From: an uncultured Alphaproteobacteria bacterium
GTDB taxonomy: Bacteria; Pseudomonadota; Alphaproteobacteria; Rhizobiales; Xanthobacteraceae
Assembly: GCA_963788095.1 (NCBI GenBank)
Contig: CAWBFP010000034.1
Coordinates: forward strand, 25,540-89,539
Direction: 5' to 3'
DNA length: 64,000 nt
Under the pieces are notes generated by a model that was given only the letters and a program-made list of their open reading frames with translations, searched no databases and was not told where the DNA came from. Shown here piece by piece: positions 15,336 through 57,830 of the stretch (within the stretch, counting starts at the first letter, position 1; each line of letters starts with the position of its first letter). Both the position numbers and the translations under genes were made by a program.

Positions 15336-16448
15336 GTGGACCTGCTCTACAAGATATTCATCGACCCGTTCGTGCAGATGGGCACGGCGCCCGACCTGTT
15401 GGTGCAGACCTTGTGGGAAGGGCTGGTCGGCGGCGTGCTGTACGCGCTGATCGCGCTCGGCTTCGTGCTGATCTTCAAGGCCTCAGGCGTGTTCAACTTC
15501 GCGCAAGGGATCATGGTGGTGTTCGCGGCGCTCACCCTGGTCGGCCTGCACAACAGCGGCTTTCCGCCGCTGTTGAGCCTCATCCTGATTGTCGGCGGGA
15601 TCGGCTTTGCGGCGTGGCGCTTCTACCAGGACCGTGCCCTGCTCGATCCCAACAAGCTGATCGCGCTCGCCGTGGCGGCGTTCGGGCTGTTCGCTTTCTT
15701 CTTCCTGACCCGCAGCGTCCCGGCCTTCATCGCGCTCGCGGTCACCGTCGGCGTGATGTTCGCGCTCGCGGTCGGCATTGAGAAGGTCGTGCTGCGCCCG
15801 CTGGTCAACCAGCCGGACATCATCCTGTTCATGGCGACCTTCGGGCTCACCTATTTCCTCATCGGCCTGGGCGAGCTTGTGTTCGGCGGCGAGCCCAAGG
15901 TGATGATCGCGAACGAGCTCTACCTCCCGAAGGGGTCGGTGGAGTGGAAGGTGCTGGGCGGGTTCGTCTCCTTGCAGAAGATCGACATCGCCGCCGCGGC
16001 GATCGCCTCGATCATGGTGGCGGTGCTGGCGGTCTTCTTCCAGAAGACCCGCATCGGGCGCGCCCTGCGAGCAGTCGCCGACAGCCACAAGGCGGCGCTG
16101 TCGGTCGGCATCTCGCTCGAGCAGATCTGGGTGATCGTGTGGTTCGCGGCCGGCATCGTCGCGCTGGCGACCGGCATCATGTGGGGCGCGCGCTCGGATG
16201 TATCGTTCGCGCTGCAGATCATCGCGCTCAAGGCGCTGCCGGTGCTGATCCTCGGCGGCTTCACCTCGATCCCCGGCGCGATCGTCGGCGGCGTCATCAT
16301 CGGCGTCGGCGAGAAGCTCGGCGAGTTCTACTGGGGGCCGCTGCTCGGCTCCGGGATCGAGAGCTGGCTCGCCTACTTCATCGCGCTGGTGTTCCTGCTG
16401 TTCCGGCCGCAGGGCCTGTTCGGCGAGAAGATCATCGAGCGAATCTAG
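15336..16448 (+). CDS. HAAT-family ABC permease (LivH-like)
   Basis: 370 aa polytopic membrane protein, LivH-type conserved region. Confidence 0.85.
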   Translation: MDLLYKIFIDPFVQMGTAPDLLVQTLWEGLVGGVLYALIALGFVLIFKASGVFNFAQGIMVVFAALTLVGLHNSGFPPLLSLILIVGGIGFAAWRFYQDRALLDPNKLIALAVAAFGLFAFFFLTRSVPAFIALAVTVGVMFALAVGIEKVVLRPLVNQPDIILFMATFGLTYFLIGLGELVFGGEPKVMIANELYLPKGSVEWKVLGGFVSLQKIDIAAAAIASIMVAVLAVFFQKTRIGRALRAVADSHKAALSVGISLEQIWVIVWFAAGIVALATGIMWGARSDVSFALQIIALKALPVLILGGFTSIPGAIVGGVIIGVGEKLGEFYWGPLLGSGIESWLAYFIALVFLLFRPQGLFGEKIIERI

Positions 16449-16625
16449 CGAATAGCGAATAGCGAATGGCGAATAGTGAATAGTGAATAGTGAATAGTGG
16501 AGGGAACGAGTGGTGGACGCGAATCGGCAAGTTGGAACTTCAACAATGATCTACTCACTACTCACCACTCACTACTCACCACTCGCTATTCGCTATTCGC
16601 CATTCGCCATTCGCCATTCGCCAAG
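16446..16625. repeat. ~180-bp imperfect hairpin built from heptamer repeats (AGCGAAT/GGCGAAT/AGTGAAT x8 on left arm; complementary ACTCACT/ATTCGCC heptamers on right arm)
   Basis: Read directly: tagcgaatagcgaatagcgaatggcgaatagtgaatagtgaatagtgaatagtgg ... ctactcactactcaccactcactactcaccactcgctattcgctattcgccattcgccattcgccattcgcc; fills the livH-livM intergenic gap. Confidence 0.8.
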
Positions 16626-16633
16626 GTGAAGCG

Positions 16634-17710
16634 ATGCTCTACCGCGAAGCCGGCCAGTACAAGACCAGCTATCAGGCCGATCAGTCGGTATTCCCGATCC
16701 TGCAGGACCGGATCGGGCTGGTCGTCATCCTGGTGATTGCGTTTGCGGTCGTGCCACTGACGATGTCGAGCTTCGCGCTGTCATCGATCATGATCCCGGT
16801 GTTGATCTTTTCGCTCGCGGCAATCGGGCTCAACCTGTTGACCGGATACACCGGCCTGCTCTCACTCGGCGCCGCCGGCTTTATGGGGGTCGGCGCCTAC
16901 GCCTGCTACAAGCTCACGACCTATTTTCCAGGCGTCAACATCTTGGTCTGGATCGTCGCCTCCGGCTTCTTCGCCGCCGCGGTCGGGGTGGTGTTCGGGC
17001 TGCCCTCGCTGCGCATCAAGGGCTTCTACCTCGCGGTGGCGACGCTGGCGGCACAGTTTTTCCTGTCCTGGTGCTTCGTGCGCTTGCCGTGGCTCGTCAA
17101 CTACAATGTCTCCGGCGCGATCGAGGTGCCGACCCGCACCCTGTTCGGGGTGCCGGTCACCGGGCCCAACGCCACGCCGATGACCCGTTATCTCGTAGTG
17201 CTCGGCATCGTCACGCTGATGACCTGGGTCGCATCCAACCTGGTGCACGGCCGCATCGGCCGGATGTGGATGGCGGTGCGCGACATGGACATCGCGGCCG
17301 AGCTGATCGGCATCAAGCTCTATCAGACCAAGCTGCTCTCCTTCGCGGTTTCCTCGTTCTACTGCGGCGTTGCCGGCGCCATGATGGTGTTTCTGTGGCT
17401 CGGCGCCGCCGAGGCCGACAGCTTCAACATCAACCAGTCGTTCCTGATCCTGTTCATGGTCATCATCGGCGGGCTTGGCAGCCTGATCGGGTCCTTCTTC
17501 GGCGCGGCGTTCATCTGGGGGCTGCCGATCGTGCTGCGTGCGATGCCGGAGTTCTTCGGCGTCGCGATCCACGCCGCCACCGTCGAGCACTTGCAGTTCA
17601 TGATCCTGGGCGCGCTGATCATCTTTTTTCTGATCGTCGAGCCGCACGGCCTTGCGCGGCTGTGGCAGATCGCTAAGCAGAAGCTCAGGGTGTGGCCGTT
17701 TCCGTACTGA
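16634..17710 (+). CDS. HAAT-family ABC permease (LivM-like)
   Basis: 358 aa polytopic membrane protein, LivM-type. Confidence 0.85.
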   Translation: MLYREAGQYKTSYQADQSVFPILQDRIGLVVILVIAFAVVPLTMSSFALSSIMIPVLIFSLAAIGLNLLTGYTGLLSLGAAGFMGVGAYACYKLTTYFPGVNILVWIVASGFFAAAVGVVFGLPSLRIKGFYLAVATLAAQFFLSWCFVRLPWLVNYNVSGAIEVPTRTLFGVPVTGPNATPMTRYLVVLGIVTLMTWVASNLVHGRIGRMWMAVRDMDIAAELIGIKLYQTKLLSFAVSSFYCGVAGAMMVFLWLGAAEADSFNINQSFLILFMVIIGGLGSLIGSFFGAAFIWGLPIVLRAMPEFFGVAIHAATVEHLQFMILGALIIFFLIVEPHGLARLWQIAKQKLRVWPFPY

Positions 17711-20204: not shown

Positions 20205-20400
20205 ACGATCGTAGGGGCGACCCTTGTGGTCGCCCGCCAGATACGTGGGGGCGACCCTTGCGGTCGCCCGCCAGATACGTAGGGGCGACCCTTGTGGTCG
20301 CCCGCCAGGCACGTAGGGGCGACCCTTGTGGTCGCCCGCGTGGTCCCGCGTAGGAGCGACCCTTGTGGTCGCCCATGTGATCCCGCGCAAGGAGACGTTC
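20205..20400 (+). repeat. REP array: 5 tandem ~34-37-bp units each containing palindrome GGGCGACC-cttgtg-GGTCGCCC (BIME-like)
   Basis: cgtaggggcgacccttgtggtcgcccgccagata repeated 5x with minor variants, directly upstream of RAYT gene. Confidence 0.85.
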
Positions 20401-20441: not shown

Positions 20442-20999
20442 ATGATCGCCGACTCACGACCCAACCGCCGCACCATCCGTCTCAAGGACTATGACTACGC
20501 GCAACCCGGCGCGTATTTCGTGACGATCTGTACGCAGGATCGGGCATGTCTGTTTGGCGACGTCATGGATTATACAATGAAACTGAACGCTGCCGGATTG
20601 GTAACGACGCTATGGAACGAGGTTCCGGCTCGCTTTGCCAATGTTGATTTGGATATGTTTGTCGTCATGCCCAATCACATTCACGGGATTTTGCTGTACC
20701 CAGACGACGGGCCGGTCATGGCTGACTGCACGCGGGCGACCACAAGGGTCGCCCCTACGATCGGACAGGTGGTTGGTGCCTTCAAATCGTTGTCCACCGT
20801 CGAGTACGTTCGAAATGTAAATGCAAACGGCTGGCCGGCATTTCATTCACGCCTGTGGCAGCGAAACTATTATGAACACGTCATTCGTGATGAAGCTGAT
20901 TTAGACCGGATCCGCCGATATATCGATGAAAACCCAGCGCGTTGGGAATTTGATGATGAGAACCCACAGCGTGTCGATCGAGCGTCCTCGACTTTGTGA
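20442..20999 (+). mobile_element. REP-associated tyrosine transposase (RAYT, IS200/IS605 Y1 HUH family), 185 aa, containing an in-frame REP copy
   Basis: HUH motif (PNHIHGIL), catalytic Tyr region (RNYYEHVIRDE), GAFKSLST motif; lower GC than surroundings; flanked 5' by REP array; inverted REP at ~20727-20765 encodes ..DCTRATTRVAPT.. Confidence 0.75.
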
Positions 21000-29990: not shown

Positions 29991-30099
29991 GCCGGTGCCT
30001 TACCACGCGGGCGTCGCCGCGAGCTACAGGCCGGCATGAACGAGAAGAGCTCGAGCTTCACGGCCGTCGGAGCAGCCGCTGCCGCCGCAGCATCCGGCC

Positions 30100-31102
30100 G
30101 TGGCGCGCGGCCGCATCGGCGTCCTGCTGGTCAATCTCGGCACGCCGGACGCGACCGACTACTGGTCGATGCGCCGCTACCTGAAGGAATTCCTGTCCGA
30201 CCGCCGGGTGATCGAGGAGAACCGCCTCAAGTGGTGGTTGATCCTCAATCTCATCGTCCTGACGGTCCGGCCGCGGCGCAAAGGGGCGCGACTACGACAA
30301 GATCTGGAACCGGGAACGCGACGAATCGCCGCTCAAGACCATCACCCGTGCGCAAGCCGAGAAGCTGGCGGCGTCGCTCGCGCCGGTCGCATCCGAGCAT
30401 CATCGTCGACTGGGCGATGCGCTACGGCAATCCGTCGATCCCGTCGCGCCTGGCGAGCCTGCAGGCGCAAGGCTGCGAGCGCATCCTGCTGGTTCCGCTC
30501 TATCCGCAATACTGCCGCCGCCACCACCGCGACGGTGTGCGACAAGGCCTTTCGATGCGCTCAAGCGCATGCGCTGGCAGCCGGCGCTGCGGGTGGCGCC
30601 GCCTTACCACGACGACCCGGTCTACATCGAGGCGGTGGCATCGTCGCTCGAGGCGGAGCTCGCCGAAGCTGCCGTTCAGCCCGAGGTCGTCATCGCCTCG
30701 TTCCACGGCGTGCCGAAGGACTATCTCGCACAAGGGCGACCCATACCATTGCCATTGCGTCAAGACGCGCGGCTGCTGCGCGAGCGGCTCGGGCCTGGAC
30801 GAGGAGCAGCTTGATGCTGACGTTCCAGTCGCGCTTCGGCACGCGCCGAATGGCTGCAGCCCTACACCGACGAGACCGTCAAGGCGCTGGCCAAGCGCGG
30901 CGTCAAGCAGCTCGCCGTCGTCACGCCCGGCTTCGCGGCCGACTGCCTGGAGACGCTGGAAGAGATCGCCGGCGAGAACGCCGAGATCTTCAGGCATGCC
31001 GGCGGCGAGAACTTTGCCGCGATCCCGTGTCTCAACGACGGCGAGCAAGGAATGCACCTGATCCGCCACGTCGTTCTGCGCGAGTTGCAGGGCTGGATCT
31101 GA
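30100..31102 (+). pseudogene. hemH: ferrochelatase with ~9 reading-frame changes; all segments recognisable
   Basis: Segments in three frames reassemble into full HemH: [33 protein letters not shown] / [26 protein letters not shown] / [38 protein letters not shown] / [12 protein letters not shown] / [28 protein letters not shown]...[12 protein letters not shown] / [10 protein letters not shown] / ARLLRERLG / LDEEQL / MLTFQSRFG / [46 protein letters not shown]...[23 protein letters not shown]. Confidence 0.8.
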
Positions 31103-31137
31103 CCGATTCCCACCATTGCGAGCCGAAGGCGAAGCAA

Positions 31138-31232
31138 TCGAGCGAGTGGCGAATAGCGAGTGGCGAATGGCGAGAGGGATTGGCGAGTGGCGACCTCTCC
31201 ATTCGCCATCGCTATCGCTGTCGCTATTCGCA
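31138..31232. repeat. second member of heptamer-hairpin repeat family (AGCGAGT GGCGAAT AGCGAGT GGCGAAT ... ATTCGCC ATCGCTA TCGCTGT CGCTATT)
   Basis: Same GCGAAT-type heptamers arranged as inverted arms in hemH-SPFH intergenic region. Confidence 0.7.
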
Positions 31233-31344
31233 TGATTCGCCGCGACGCTCCCTGCAATGACGAACAAGGCCGCGGCTTGCCTATTGCTGCGGCCCGGCGC
31301 GGGTTCCACAATCCGGCGCACGACGCGATCAGGGGGCCTCTCGC

Positions 31345-32367
31345 ATGTTTCCGCTCGGACTGGACATCTTCGTCATCGTCATCGTCGTGCTTGCCGTCCT
31401 CACCTTGTTCGCCGGCGTCAAGACCGTCGGCGCAAGGCTACAAGTGGACGGTCGAGCGCTTCGGCCGCTACATCCGCACGCTGTCGCCGGGCCTCAACCT
31501 GATCGTGCCGTACTTCGACCGCATCGGCCGCAAGATGAACATGATGGAGCAGGTGATCGAGATCCCGCAGCAGGACGTGATCACCAAGGACAACGCCACG
31601 GTCACGGTCGACGGCATCGCGTTCTTCCAGGTCTTCGATGCCGCCAAGGCGAGCTACGAGGTGTCCAATCTCGACCATGCGATCGTGCAGCTCACGATGA
31701 CCAACATCCGCTCGGTGATGGGCGCGATGGACCTCGACCAGATGCTTTCGCACCGCGACGAGATCAACGAGCGGCTGTTGCGCGTGGTCGACGCCGCGGT
31801 GTCGCCCTGGGGCGTCAAGGTCAACCGGATCGAGATCAAGGACATCATCCCGCCGGCCAATCTGGTCGAGGCGATGGGGCGGCAGATGAAGGCCGAGCGC
31901 GACAAGCGGGCCGAGATCCTGCAGGCCGAGGGCCAGCGGCAGTCCGAGATCCTGCGCGCCGAAGGCGCCAAGCAGTCGCAGATCCTCGAGGCCGAAGGGC
32001 GCCGCGAGGCGGCCTTTCGCGACGCCGAGGGCCGCGAGCGCCTCGCCCAGGCCGAAGCCAAGGCGACCGAGATGGTGAGCGAGGCGGTGGCGCGCGGCGA
32101 CGTCGCAGCTCTCAACTACTTCGTCGCCGAGAAGTACCTCAAGGCGTTCGCGCAACTTGCCGAATCGCCGAACCAGAAGATTCTCATGCTGCCGATCGAG
32201 GCGACGAGCGTGCTGGGCGCGCTCGGAGGCATCGGCGAGATCGCGCGCGCGACCTTCGGTCCGGACGGCAGGCCGCCGGCGCCGCCGGCGTCGACGACAC
32301 GGCGTCCCACCGGTGCCGCCGACAAGCCCTGGCGGCGTGGTCGTCAGACCGGGCGGACCGATCATGA
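31345..32367 (+). pseudogene. SPFH/band-7 (stomatin-like) protein, frame-disrupted at ~31425 and near C-terminus
   Basis: N-term TM MFPLGLDIFVIVIVVLAVLTLFAGVKTV in frame 1; SPFH core (QGYKWTVERFGRYIRTLSPGLNLIVPYFDRIG...EIKDIIPPANLVEAMGRQMKAERDKRAEIL..) in frame 2; frame-1 stop 32365-32367 overlaps nfeD ATG (ATGATGA). Confidence 0.7.
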
Positions 32368-53675: not shown

Positions 53676-53895
53676 CGATTGTCGCTTGCGTTGAGTCACC
53701 TCTCTCCGCCTGCGGGGAGAGGTCGGCGAGCGTAGCGAGCCGGGTGAGGGGCCTTGGTCGGGGACCGTGCCTGGCCGCAAGCCCCCTCACCCGGATCGTC
53801 TCGCTCGCGCTCGACGATCCGACCTCTCCCCGCAAGCGGGGAGAGGTGGCGCAGCGGCGCTCGCCGTGCATCAACACCACAGGGAAATATTGCAG
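53676..53895. repeat. composite palindromic repeat element (5' module attgtcgcttgcg..cacctctc(c/t)cc..ggggagagg; internal extra palindrome ccgggtgagggg..ccccctcacccgg; 3' module gacctctccccgcaagcggggagaggtggcgcagcggcgct..caccac.gggaaat)
   Basis: Shares 5' and 3' modules with the 85-bp element at 59393-59480; located immediately 3' of a + strand gene. Confidence 0.7.
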
Positions 53896-56057: not shown

Positions 56058-56234
56058 TAATTCGATCAATGAGTTGACCCGCGCGATGGGCAGCCGGGCC
56101 CGGCAGCCCTCTTGCCTTTTGTGCGGCGCAATGTCATATTTTGCGTTGCGGTAGCTGTGCTGCCGCTGCCCTCCTTGGGCGTTTCCTCCCTAGACTTGGC
56201 CGCCATTCGCTGGCGGCCTTTTTTTCCCGGCCGC

Positions 56235-57755: not shown

Positions 57756-57830
57756 GGGCGCGTAGCTCAGCGGGAGAGCACTACGTTGACATCGTAGGGG
57801 TCGCTGGTTCGATCCCAGCCGCGCCCACCA
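57756..57830 (+). tRNA. tRNA-Val (anticodon GAC)
   Basis: Cloverleaf folded by eye: acceptor GGGCGCG/CGCGCCC, D-arm GCTC-AGCGGGA-GAGC, anticodon stem CTACG/CGTAG with loop TTGACAT, T-arm GCTGG-TTCGATC-CCAGC, 3' ACCA encoded. Confidence 0.85.

Follow-up and report, generated by a model that had tools for sequence, protein, structure and literature searches.

What is a long, repeat-filled gap doing between two adjacent genes of a transporter operon? The question is raised by a 64,000-nt stretch of DNA from an uncultured Alphaproteobacteria bacterium of the Xanthobacteraceae (assembly GCA_963788095.1, contig CAWBFP010000034.1, positions 25,540 to 89,539; hereafter the window, always meant at its full length), in which the genes for a LivH-like and a LivM-like permease of the ATP-binding cassette (ABC) type are separated, at 16446-16625 on the + strand, by arrays of 7-nt repeats. 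This element consists of two heptanucleotide simple-sequence-repeat arrays in inverted orientation inside an operon, and we refer to it as a heptamer hairpin. The explanation we favor, to which we assign a probability of about 0.6, is that it represents an intercistronic member of a large family whose arms would be driven by slippage, which would have spread by copying, and which would play an RNA-level role like that of repetitive extragenic palindromic (REP) sequences, with translational coupling of the flanking genes.

The repeat unit is GCGAATR, with the variants GTGAATA, GCGAGTR, and GTGAGTR. By unit parsing, the left (5') arm at 16448-16496 comprises seven heptamers (GCGAATA twice, GCGAATG, GCGAATA, GTGAATA three times) and the right (3') arm at 16552-16621 ten inverted ones (TACTCAC twice, CACTCAC, TACTCAC, CACTCGC, TATTCGC twice, CATTCGC three times). 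Between them lies a unique 55-nt core (16497-16551), a loop region that is partly self-paired in the predicted fold and conserved only among alleles of this locus. Tandem Repeats Finder recovered the left arm as a period-7 array at 16446-16497 (7.4 copies, 93% matches) and the other arm as overlapping period-7 arrays at 16551-16588 and 16579-16623 (one of them with 6.4 copies at 92%), in agreement with the preliminary description of this locus, which had read the right arm as an imperfect complement written in heptamers. The same description had divided the left arm into three AGCGAAT, one GGCGAAT, and four AGTGAAT; in that phase, the first four units and three of the AGTGAAT are present, while the supposed fourth reads AGTGGAG. 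Across the window, the heptamer pattern occurs 16 times against 5.3 expected, and every match falls either in this element or in a second, degenerate copy at 31138-31241.

The two arms are predicted to form a very stable stem. An inverted-repeat search placed them at 16429-16499 and 16570-16640 (71 nt, 77% complementary; the best-matching part is a 52-nt sub-pair at 85%), close to the imperfect stem of about 70 bp initially proposed. Folding both strands, one of the checks suggested at the outset, yielded stable structures on each: -96.8 kcal/mol for the + strand RNA (z = -10.3) and -110.1 kcal/mol for the - strand RNA (z = -13.3), with a DNA fold of the + strand at -50.5 kcal/mol (z = -8.2), and none of 200 shuffled sequences matched the observed value in any of the three. 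In all three minimum-energy folds the right arm pairs with the left, and the RNA folds predict a stem of more than 60 pairs on either strand.

This stem would span the junction between the two genes almost exactly. At its 5' foot, the last codons of livH and its stop (GAG CGA ATC TAG) merge into the first heptamer, such that the TAG stop codon at 16446-16448 is itself part of the first repeat. At the other end, the livM ribosome-binding site (AAGGTGA, 16623-16629), which precedes the ATG at 16634-16636, starts 1 nt past the last unit of the right arm, and in the predicted fold of the + strand RNA its AGGU pairs with the AUCU that immediately precedes the livH stop. Neither strand has a T-run after this copy, and a scan of 16200-16900 returned no promoter-like or terminator-like site on either strand. 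A search of Rfam gave nothing at the gathering threshold, and an E-value search gave only chance matches of microRNA type, far below their thresholds.

Next, we compared the same spacer in relatives. Six metagenome contigs encode a LivM identical to that of the window, and five of these carry the hairpin with differing unit numbers. In these five (L121, L122, L124, L125, and L126; livM DNA at least 99.6% identical to the window), the same core is found in two haplotypes, whereas the left arm holds 7, 11, 14, 14, and at least 10 units and the right arm 10-13, although these numbers derive from short-read contigs and may include assembly error. The arms behave as a variable-number tandem repeat. 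The sixth contig (L123, livM DNA 99.8% identical) has an empty 10-nt spacer, GAGCGCATC TGA AGGTGAACCG ATG. Among more distant relatives, L127 (91%) contains a heptamer hairpin of 176 nt with a different core and L129 (82%) one of 91 nt, while the spacers of L128 and L132-L135 (81-84%) are empty at 10-12 nt, and those of the two Pseudorhodoplanes loci, L130 and L131 (77%), hold 187 nt of an unrelated repeat. In Pseudorhodoplanes sinuspersici (CP021112.1, L130 9814-10000), this is a 187-nt non-heptamer element with inverted repeats of the CCGGAATCC type, so the livH-livM site accepts different kinds of repeat. With a stop-to-start gap of 10-12 nt in six relatives (L123, L128, and L132-L135) and hairpins of 91-254 nt in the window clade, L127, and L129, the alignments indicate that the short spacer is ancestral and that the hairpin is a patchily distributed insertion.

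Empty sites end livH with GAGCG[C/G]AT[C/T/A] followed by TAG or TGA (TGA in L123, with AAGGTGA straight after it). Filled alleles have CGA or CGG instead of CGC as the Arg codon that precedes the stop, which leaves the amino acid unchanged and makes the flank more repeat-like. Comparing filled (ATCTAG/CGAAT...TTCGCC/AAGGTGA) with empty (ATCTGAAGGTGA) sequences revealed no target-site duplication at this single site, and a BLAST search of the core against all fetched loci matched only alleles of the livH-livM locus.

To place this element in a broader context, we searched for inverted GCGAATA-type pairs, as had been suggested, in one genome per bacterial species (query GCGAATRGCGAATRGCGAAT; at least 120 stretches from many phyla) and in viral contigs (at least 100 stretches); all family counts below are among the 120 genome and 100 viral stretches listed. 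The anticipated dispersed family was found, with at least 160 further pairs in which the GCGAAT arm comes first. Genomes contributed 50 pairs in this order, one in reverse order, and 85 single arrays, and the viral contigs 109 pairs plus one double hairpin, no reverse pair, and 47 single arrays. Overall, 160 pairs are GCGAAT-arm-first and one is reversed. Since arm order reads alike from either strand, this 160-to-1 ratio represents a true handedness of the family, 5'-(GCGAATR)n ... (YATTCGC)n-3' on whichever strand is read. Paired arrays are concentrated in Alphaproteobacteria, where 45 of the 63 arrays take the hairpin form (none reversed, 18 single) compared to 5 of 73 in other phyla (one reversed, 67 single), the latter being mostly ordinary direct repeats that often stand beside other heptamers. 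The alphaproteobacterial carriers are mostly Hyphomicrobiales, including Bradyrhizobium, Rhodopseudomonas, Xanthobacteraceae, Mesorhizobium, Nitratireductor, and Beijerinckiaceae. Many viral contigs contain 3-5 hairpins per 5-13 kb.

Several of these loci illustrate the range of the family. In an IMG/VR contig (IMGVR_UViG_3300027869_000159, L210 5283-9905), five hairpins occupy five successive spacers within ~5 kb of a module of phage or gene transfer agent (GTA) type, which includes terminase, portal, protease, major capsid, tail terminator, major tail, short tape measure, and glycoside hydrolase genes; T-runs follow two of these hairpins, namely the hairpin behind the capsid gene and its downstream neighbor. 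Five other viral contigs (L185, L234, L189, L164, and L196) are as hairpin-dense. A 39% G+C viral contig (IMGVR_UViG_3300035183_001479) carries four composite GCGAAT hairpins (L158 518-655 and 13796-13914; L177 2438-2573 and 3909-4032) with a common loop (AGAAAAATACC) and common linkers (ATAGATCA and CAATAGATTCGC), which marks them as a true dispersed repeat, in a genome with a base composition that would be unfavorable to this unit. A further arrangement (L096 1791-2297, L102 7165-7625, and also L003 and L107) is found at orthologous positions in three or four genera: a small gene is flanked by a forward GCGAATR array and an inverted one, separated by 430-480 nt, with the handedness of the hairpins retained.

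The position of family members relative to genes was then scored on contigs above 58% G+C, using a heuristic based on open frames and on G+C at third codon positions; some orthologous sites are counted more than once in these statistics. The genome set included 29 copies between co-directional genes, 13 between convergent genes, one between divergent genes, and five with unclear context, and the corresponding viral numbers were 59, 3, 3, and 21, with five copies at a contig edge. Divergent spacers thus account for 1 of 43 and 3 of 65 scored copies, respectively. Elements sit next to stop codons: the stop of the incoming gene lies -22 to +24 nt from the element edge in 54 of 54 cases in genomes (median ~4), and -22 to +25 nt in 60 of 65 viral cases (median 6). 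Elements often supply the adjacent stop codon themselves, and TAG is used there in 23 of 54 (genome) and 36 of 65 (viral) cases versus 40 of 162 elsewhere in the same contigs. Within operons, the next ribosome-binding site typically begins 3-15 nt beyond the 3' arm, and between convergent genes (13 genome copies) the element occupies the entire spacer. Sites also persist. Orthologous spacers are occupied at 72-87% DNA identity, with differing loops and unit numbers, as seen for tuf-rpsJ (L026, L034, and L087), for accB-accC (L046 and L100), for a Bradyrhizobium metagenome-assembled genome (MAG) and R. palustris BisB18 (L079 and L113), and for the sets L053 and L109, and L002, L058, and L098. 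A copy in BisB18 is located near position 189,600 of NC_007925.1.

Unit variants are specific to contigs, both for GTGA versus GCGA (permutation p = 0.002) and for A versus G at position 7 (p = 0.0002). These patterns, the fixed handedness, and the shared loops of L158 and L177 jointly favor copying or concerted evolution over an independent birth at each site. Nucleation of arrays at gene ends that happen to resemble a unit, with a Glu codon followed by the stop, finds weak support at most: Glu is the final codon in 6 of 44 cases compared to 11 of 162 (p = 0.21), and the p = 0.016 obtained for Glu or Lys includes repeated orthologous sites. Supply of stop codons was rejected as the cause of the handedness: TAG-bearing units are not enriched in the arms facing the incoming gene (p = 0.29), the comparable Xanthomonas unit contains no stop codon at all, and TAG as the adjacent stop shows only a modest enrichment in genomes (23 of 54 versus 40 of 162).

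Under the favored explanation, the arms would gain and lose units through replication slippage, and since any register shift of 7 nt still pairs, the hairpin would survive this instability. The family would spread by some copying process rather than by new birth at each site, which we propose because of the near-absolute handedness and the contig-specific unit variants. At the livH-livM site, the element would be co-transcribed in the operon mRNA and fold into a stem of 60 bp or more, presumably without terminating transcription, since it lacks a U-tract. Most likely, it would then act as a REP-type stem-loop, which would offer RNase III a double-stranded target, stop 3'-5' exonucleases, or do both. 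A site of RNase processing, as offered in the preliminary description, or of mRNA stability that would split the operon transcript is plausible. The stem would also bring together the livH stop and the livM ribosome-binding site, part of the latter being paired at its foot, so that a ribosome terminating there could free the livM site and coupling could be kept across 185 nt. Such a coupling of livM to livH termination would explain why an insertion is tolerated between two permease subunits, and the net fitness effect at this site may be small.

Several observations weigh against this interpretation. The antisense RNA is the better paired at the livH-livM copy, as initially noted, yet the order is reversed in the second copy of the window and the family displays no trend: among co-directional copies, the sense and antisense strands are the more stable in 16 and 13 cases in genomes (p = 0.22) and in 22 and 37 in viral contigs (p = 0.056), i.e., 38 versus 50 of 88 pooled copies, with neither set significant alone. 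This lack of a sense-strand advantage is not what would be expected from selection on the sense RNA alone. Likewise, the mirror order of unit variants between arms is that expected by chance in a permutation test of low power for short arms (observed 734, null 734), which gives no sign of selection or of arm-to-arm correction for perfect pairing. The absence of TAG enrichment mentioned above points the same way, and loops are not the same from copy to copy, an unusual feature in a family that spreads by copying. The flanking permease subunits are needed in equal amounts, leaving no obvious use for differential expression, and processing, stabilization, and coupling all derive from predicted folds and from analogy. 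In addition, the only empty contig with a near-identical livM, L123, is recombinant or chimeric, so that presence and absence within one population is unproven: its livH is 92% and its livM 99.8% identical to the window, and the switch occurs exactly at the spacer (L123 1405-1416), indicating either a recombinant or a chimeric assembly with its junction there. Finally, the gene-context calls are heuristic and confined to contigs above 58% G+C, 5 genome and 21 viral copies remain unclear, and some orthologous sites enter the family statistics repeatedly.

The strongest competitor, a real possibility though clearly the less probable one, is that these hairpins are neutral or mildly selfish by-products of slippage and template switching. 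They would have no role, would be seen only where they are harmless (after stop codons and outside promoters), and would persist through the self-regeneration of tandem arrays. Among long simple repeats, heptamers have been reported to be the most over-represented in many bacteria, with slippage proposed as the cause (Mrazek 2007, as far as summarized in PMC4679880 and PMC4692102). The extreme variation in unit number among near-identical strains and the patchy occupancy of the livH-livM site are what such a process would leave behind, and the lack of strand preference, of mirror order, and of any use for unequal expression of two permease subunits fits it as well. Conversely, unbiased local template switching would not be expected to yield a handedness of 160 to 1, nor does it account for the same spacers being occupied across genera despite fast internal turnover, or for the very high density in some phage- or GTA-like operons (e.g., five copies per 5 kb). 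Long palindromes are normally lost fast by deletion, and their persistence here suggests retention.

A bolder proposal would combine spread and function. Rather than being accidents of slippage, one-handed hairpins, of GCGAATR here and of GGGAATC in Xanthomonas, might be placed directly 3' of stop codons in chromosomes and in phage- or GTA-like DNA by a dedicated mechanism of copying or repeat addition, each genome using its own unit variant, with the hairpins then serving as heritable dials, open to fine adjustment, for intercistronic mRNA processing and translational coupling. We consider this speculative and unlikely.

Movement as a non-autonomous mobile element, of the kind of MITEs (miniature inverted-repeat transposable elements) or REPINs, by a transposase (for instance one of RAYT type that would recognize the hairpin and the GTAG in GCGAGTAG units) appears improbable as well. 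It would be in keeping with the many dispersed copies, with the insertion relative to a short ancestral spacer, and with the contig-specific unit variants; fixed handedness is expected for descent by copying, one viral contig holds four copies with common loops, and the window has a RAYT-like gene at a distance of 3.8 kb. However, within the window the repeat found on the flanks of this gene and inside it is a different one, a 34-bp GTAG palindrome, rather than heptamers. Arm length varies freely, the core or loop is unique to each locus, even between orthologous ones (the exception being the four copies of the low-GC viral contig), and the filled and empty livH-livM sites display neither a target-site duplication nor defined termini. 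A MITE with a shared core was rejected, the BLAST search having matched the core to livH-livM alleles only. The membership in a REP- or MITE-like family initially suggested was not borne out, in that a conserved palindromic unit and a conserved core are lacking, as is any signature of terminal repeats or target duplication at the filled versus empty livH-livM site.

The window does contain a REP system in its own right. Five tandem 34-bp palindromes of GTAG type (CGTAGGGGCGACCCTTGTGGTCGCCC...) at 20210-20380 stand directly upstream of an open reading frame (ORF) for a RAYT-like tyrosine transposase (20442-20999; NCBIfam REP_Tyr_transpos, E 1e-16, 61 bits with a cut-off of 80; Pfam Y1_Tnp, 23.7 bits), and an inverted REP copy is located inside this ORF at 20729-20759. 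Judging from these sequences, this GTAG REP/RAYT system is separate from the heptamer hairpins. GTAG and CGTC REP families are known to occur in Bradyrhizobium and R. palustris (PMC3733652).

A terminator or attenuator separating livH from livM would account for a very stable stem straight after a stop codon, for the minority of family members with T-runs (e.g., after the capsid gene in L210), and for the 13 genome copies that fill convergent spacers entirely. Yet the livH-livM copy lacks a T-run on either strand, the terminator scan was empty, and the downstream permease, binding-protein, and ATPase genes, which have no promoter of their own in the scan, need transcription from upstream. Across the family, only 11 of the 120 flanks scored are T-rich on the sense strand, indicating that most copies are not canonical terminators. 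On these grounds, classical termination, or the attenuation that had been put forward for this site, seems very doubtful.

We attach still less weight to a DNA-level element, i.e., a cruciform or slipped structure that would bind a nucleoid or topology protein, or a recombination hotspot. Gyrase or IHF bind the BIMEs of E. coli. The family properties are strand-symmetric, without a sense-strand bias, folding of the DNA likewise gives a structure far more stable than shuffled controls, the identity of L123 jumps from 92% to 99.8% precisely where the spacer lies, and the G-GAAT core that the unit has in common with Xanthomonas repeats could reflect a common binding protein. On the other hand, there is no known protein partner, the L123 junction may be an assembly chimera, and a role in DNA would leave the link to stop codons and the depletion from divergent spacers unexplained. 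An independent small RNA gene or antisense RNA, also raised initially and suggested by the better fold of the - strand at livH-livM, can be set aside as barely credible, given a hypervariable sequence, the lack of promoter-like and terminator-like sites on both strands, Rfam matches no better than noise, and an antisense advantage that is not a property of the family.

The genes around the hairpin are those of a transport operon, which encodes an acyl-CoA ligase, a LivG-like ATPase, LivH, LivM, a periplasmic binding protein, and a LivF-like ATPase. The livH-like gene (15336-16448, +) was assigned through NCBIfam LivH/UrtB, and Pfam BPD_transp_2 is found in identical metagenome genes; the livM-like gene (16634-17710, +) matches NCBIfam LivM with an E-value of 8.6e-30, and the best named relatives of its product, at 83-84% identity, come from Pseudorhodoplanes and from Xanthobacteraceae MAGs, which places the origin of the window in an uncultured member of the Hyphomicrobiales.

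The second copy, which had been noted as a related element between hemH and the SPFH gene, was confirmed by Tandem Repeats Finder and by folding at about 31138-31241 on the + strand, and is degenerate. It starts ~35 nt past the end of the ferrochelatase reading frame and ~100 nt ahead of the next gene, and combines a left arm of GCGAGTG and GCGAATR units (31142-31193, period 7) with a partly hexameric right arm (ATCGCT; 31203-31227, period 6). Its RNA folds reach -66.8 kcal/mol on the + strand (z -6.3) and -57.9 kcal/mol on the - strand (z -5.4), and the equivalent region of the relative L129 lacks it. The 30-32.5 kb section of the window shows frameshifts that are possibly sequencing errors. 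The Pfam match to ferrochelatase is split across overlapping ORFs in different frames (30036-31061 and 30100-31260), with the conserved C-terminus in a third frame that ends at 31100-31102, and the downstream ORF (31345-32367) has neither a Pfam match nor an exact match in the protein collection, its counterpart in L129 being a Band_7/SPFH gene. These split genes at 30036-32367 are either pseudogenes or products of assembly indel errors, and the hexamer units may be indel errors of the same kind. An exact-protein look-up with the downstream gene found no alleles of the second copy, probably due to the frameshifts in the genes there. The same ORF also contains a 33-nt tandem repeat (31891-32003, 3.4 copies, 72% matches) that would encode an 11-residue protein repeat. 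Elsewhere in the window, we noted an intergenic set of nested inverted repeats at 53689-53856 (one of 38 nt at 87%, the other of 31 nt at 84%; arms of the GGGGAGAGG type), an Rfam match to the alphaproteobacterial small RNA mmgR at 56161-56233 (65.8 bits, gathering score 41), and an Rfam match to tRNA at 57756-57827.

Among known systems, the closest described relative is the GGGAATC (GGGANTN) repeat of Xanthomonas, of which a genome carries ~186 arrays, 70-75 of them as convergent inverted pairs in which the G-rich arm leads (Rehm et al. 2015, PMC4692102). These arrays are 89-93% intergenic, lie on average 28 nt from the upstream gene, with 7-8% between divergent genes, and differ in length between related species while the type of site is kept (PMC4692102). 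The GCGAATR hairpins resemble them in architecture, handedness, placement, the 7-nt unit, and its G-GAAT core, and the livH-livM element is likewise a convergent pair of opposed arrays, close together and with the G-rich arm first. Unlike the Xanthomonas repeats, however, they occur in Hyphomicrobiales and in phage- and GTA-like clusters, and the paired form dominates (45 of 63 arrays). They also lack a G-tract: the arm units GCGAATR, GTGAATA, and GTGAGTR contain no GGG run, so that the G-quadruplex potential of the GGGANTN class does not extend to them.

More generally, long simple repeats of many bacteria have been reported to include an excess of heptamers, for which slippage has been proposed (Mrazek 2007, as relayed in PMC4679880 and PMC4692102). 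With tandem 7-nt units above chance and polymorphic unit numbers among relatives, the livH-livM arms have the features of such long heptanucleotide repeats. As far as these families are portrayed in the accounts cited here (Mrazek et al. 2007; cyanobacterial STRR; Beggiatoaceae TAACTGA, PMC4679880), they share tandem 7-nt units, a mostly intergenic location, and variable copy number with GCGAATR, but are mainly direct arrays, whereas the GCGAATR arrays are paired into hairpins abutting stop codons. For instance, the Beggiatoaceae TAACTGA repeat occurs in 169 direct sets compared to a single inverted one, for the most part a short distance upstream of start codons (PMC4679880).

REP, BIME, and REPIN elements are, like heptamer hairpins, dispersed intergenic hairpins found after genes, in operons, or in convergent spacers, and the consequences for the mRNA are likely the same; a classic example of a REP in an ABC operon is malE-malF of E. 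coli. In contrast, REPs are imperfect palindromes of 20-40 nt with a conserved GTAG or CGTC tag and a link to RAYTs, while the stem of a heptamer hairpin is built from tandem units in variable number: it has no fixed palindromic unit, and the RAYT-like ORF of the window is not flanked by heptamers. MITEs such as the Correia elements of Neisseria are likewise small dispersed inverted repeats, and can undergo co-transcription and RNase III cleavage. The conserved body, the defined terminal inverted repeats, and the target duplications that characterize MITEs were not seen for the livH-livM element. A functional parallel is the hmw 5' untranslated region (UTR) of H. influenzae, where a heptamer repeat supplies one arm of a long RNA hairpin, a substrate of RNase III that sets expression (PMC12721329). 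Both systems involve a heptameric repeat of variable number, transcribed (as would be the case here) into an arm of a long double-stranded RNA stem, which for the livH-livM element is a prediction, and cutting by RNase III is known for hmw. The hmw unit, ATCTTTC, pairs with a non-repeat G-rich arm at a single 5'-UTR locus involved in adhesin phase variation, whereas in hairpins of the livH-livM type both arms are repeats, the location is intercistronic, and copies are many. Our literature search found no published description of a GCGAATR hairpin family, including for Bradyrhizobium, Rhodopseudomonas, and Mesorhizobium, but only general papers on heptamer repeats. The kind of repeat is already known from Xanthomonas, and its description for soil alphaproteobacteria is apparently new. 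Overall, a REP-like intercistronic RNA hairpin, which we infer would combine a target for RNase III or a barrier to exonucleases with translational coupling, is the reading we retain.

Taken by itself, the livH-livM copy is probably of small consequence, and it is the rules seen at the level of the family, among them the density in phage- and GTA-like operons, that provide new constraints. Heptamer hairpins break short-read assemblies and, with TAG stops and ATG triplets in all frames, can mislead gene calling, while their variable arms would serve as strain-level markers. Reports of heptamers as the most over-represented of the long simple repeats in many bacteria date back to 2007. Because GCGAATR lacks a G-tract, the G-quadruplex idea derived from Xanthomonas cannot be what unites these repeats. 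Any model will instead have to accommodate three constraints, namely a near-absolute handedness, a placement at stop codons, and a persistence of sites across genera despite rapid internal turnover, and the carriers of these elements include cultivable and genetically tractable hosts such as Rhodopseudomonas palustris, Bradyrhizobium, and Mesorhizobium.

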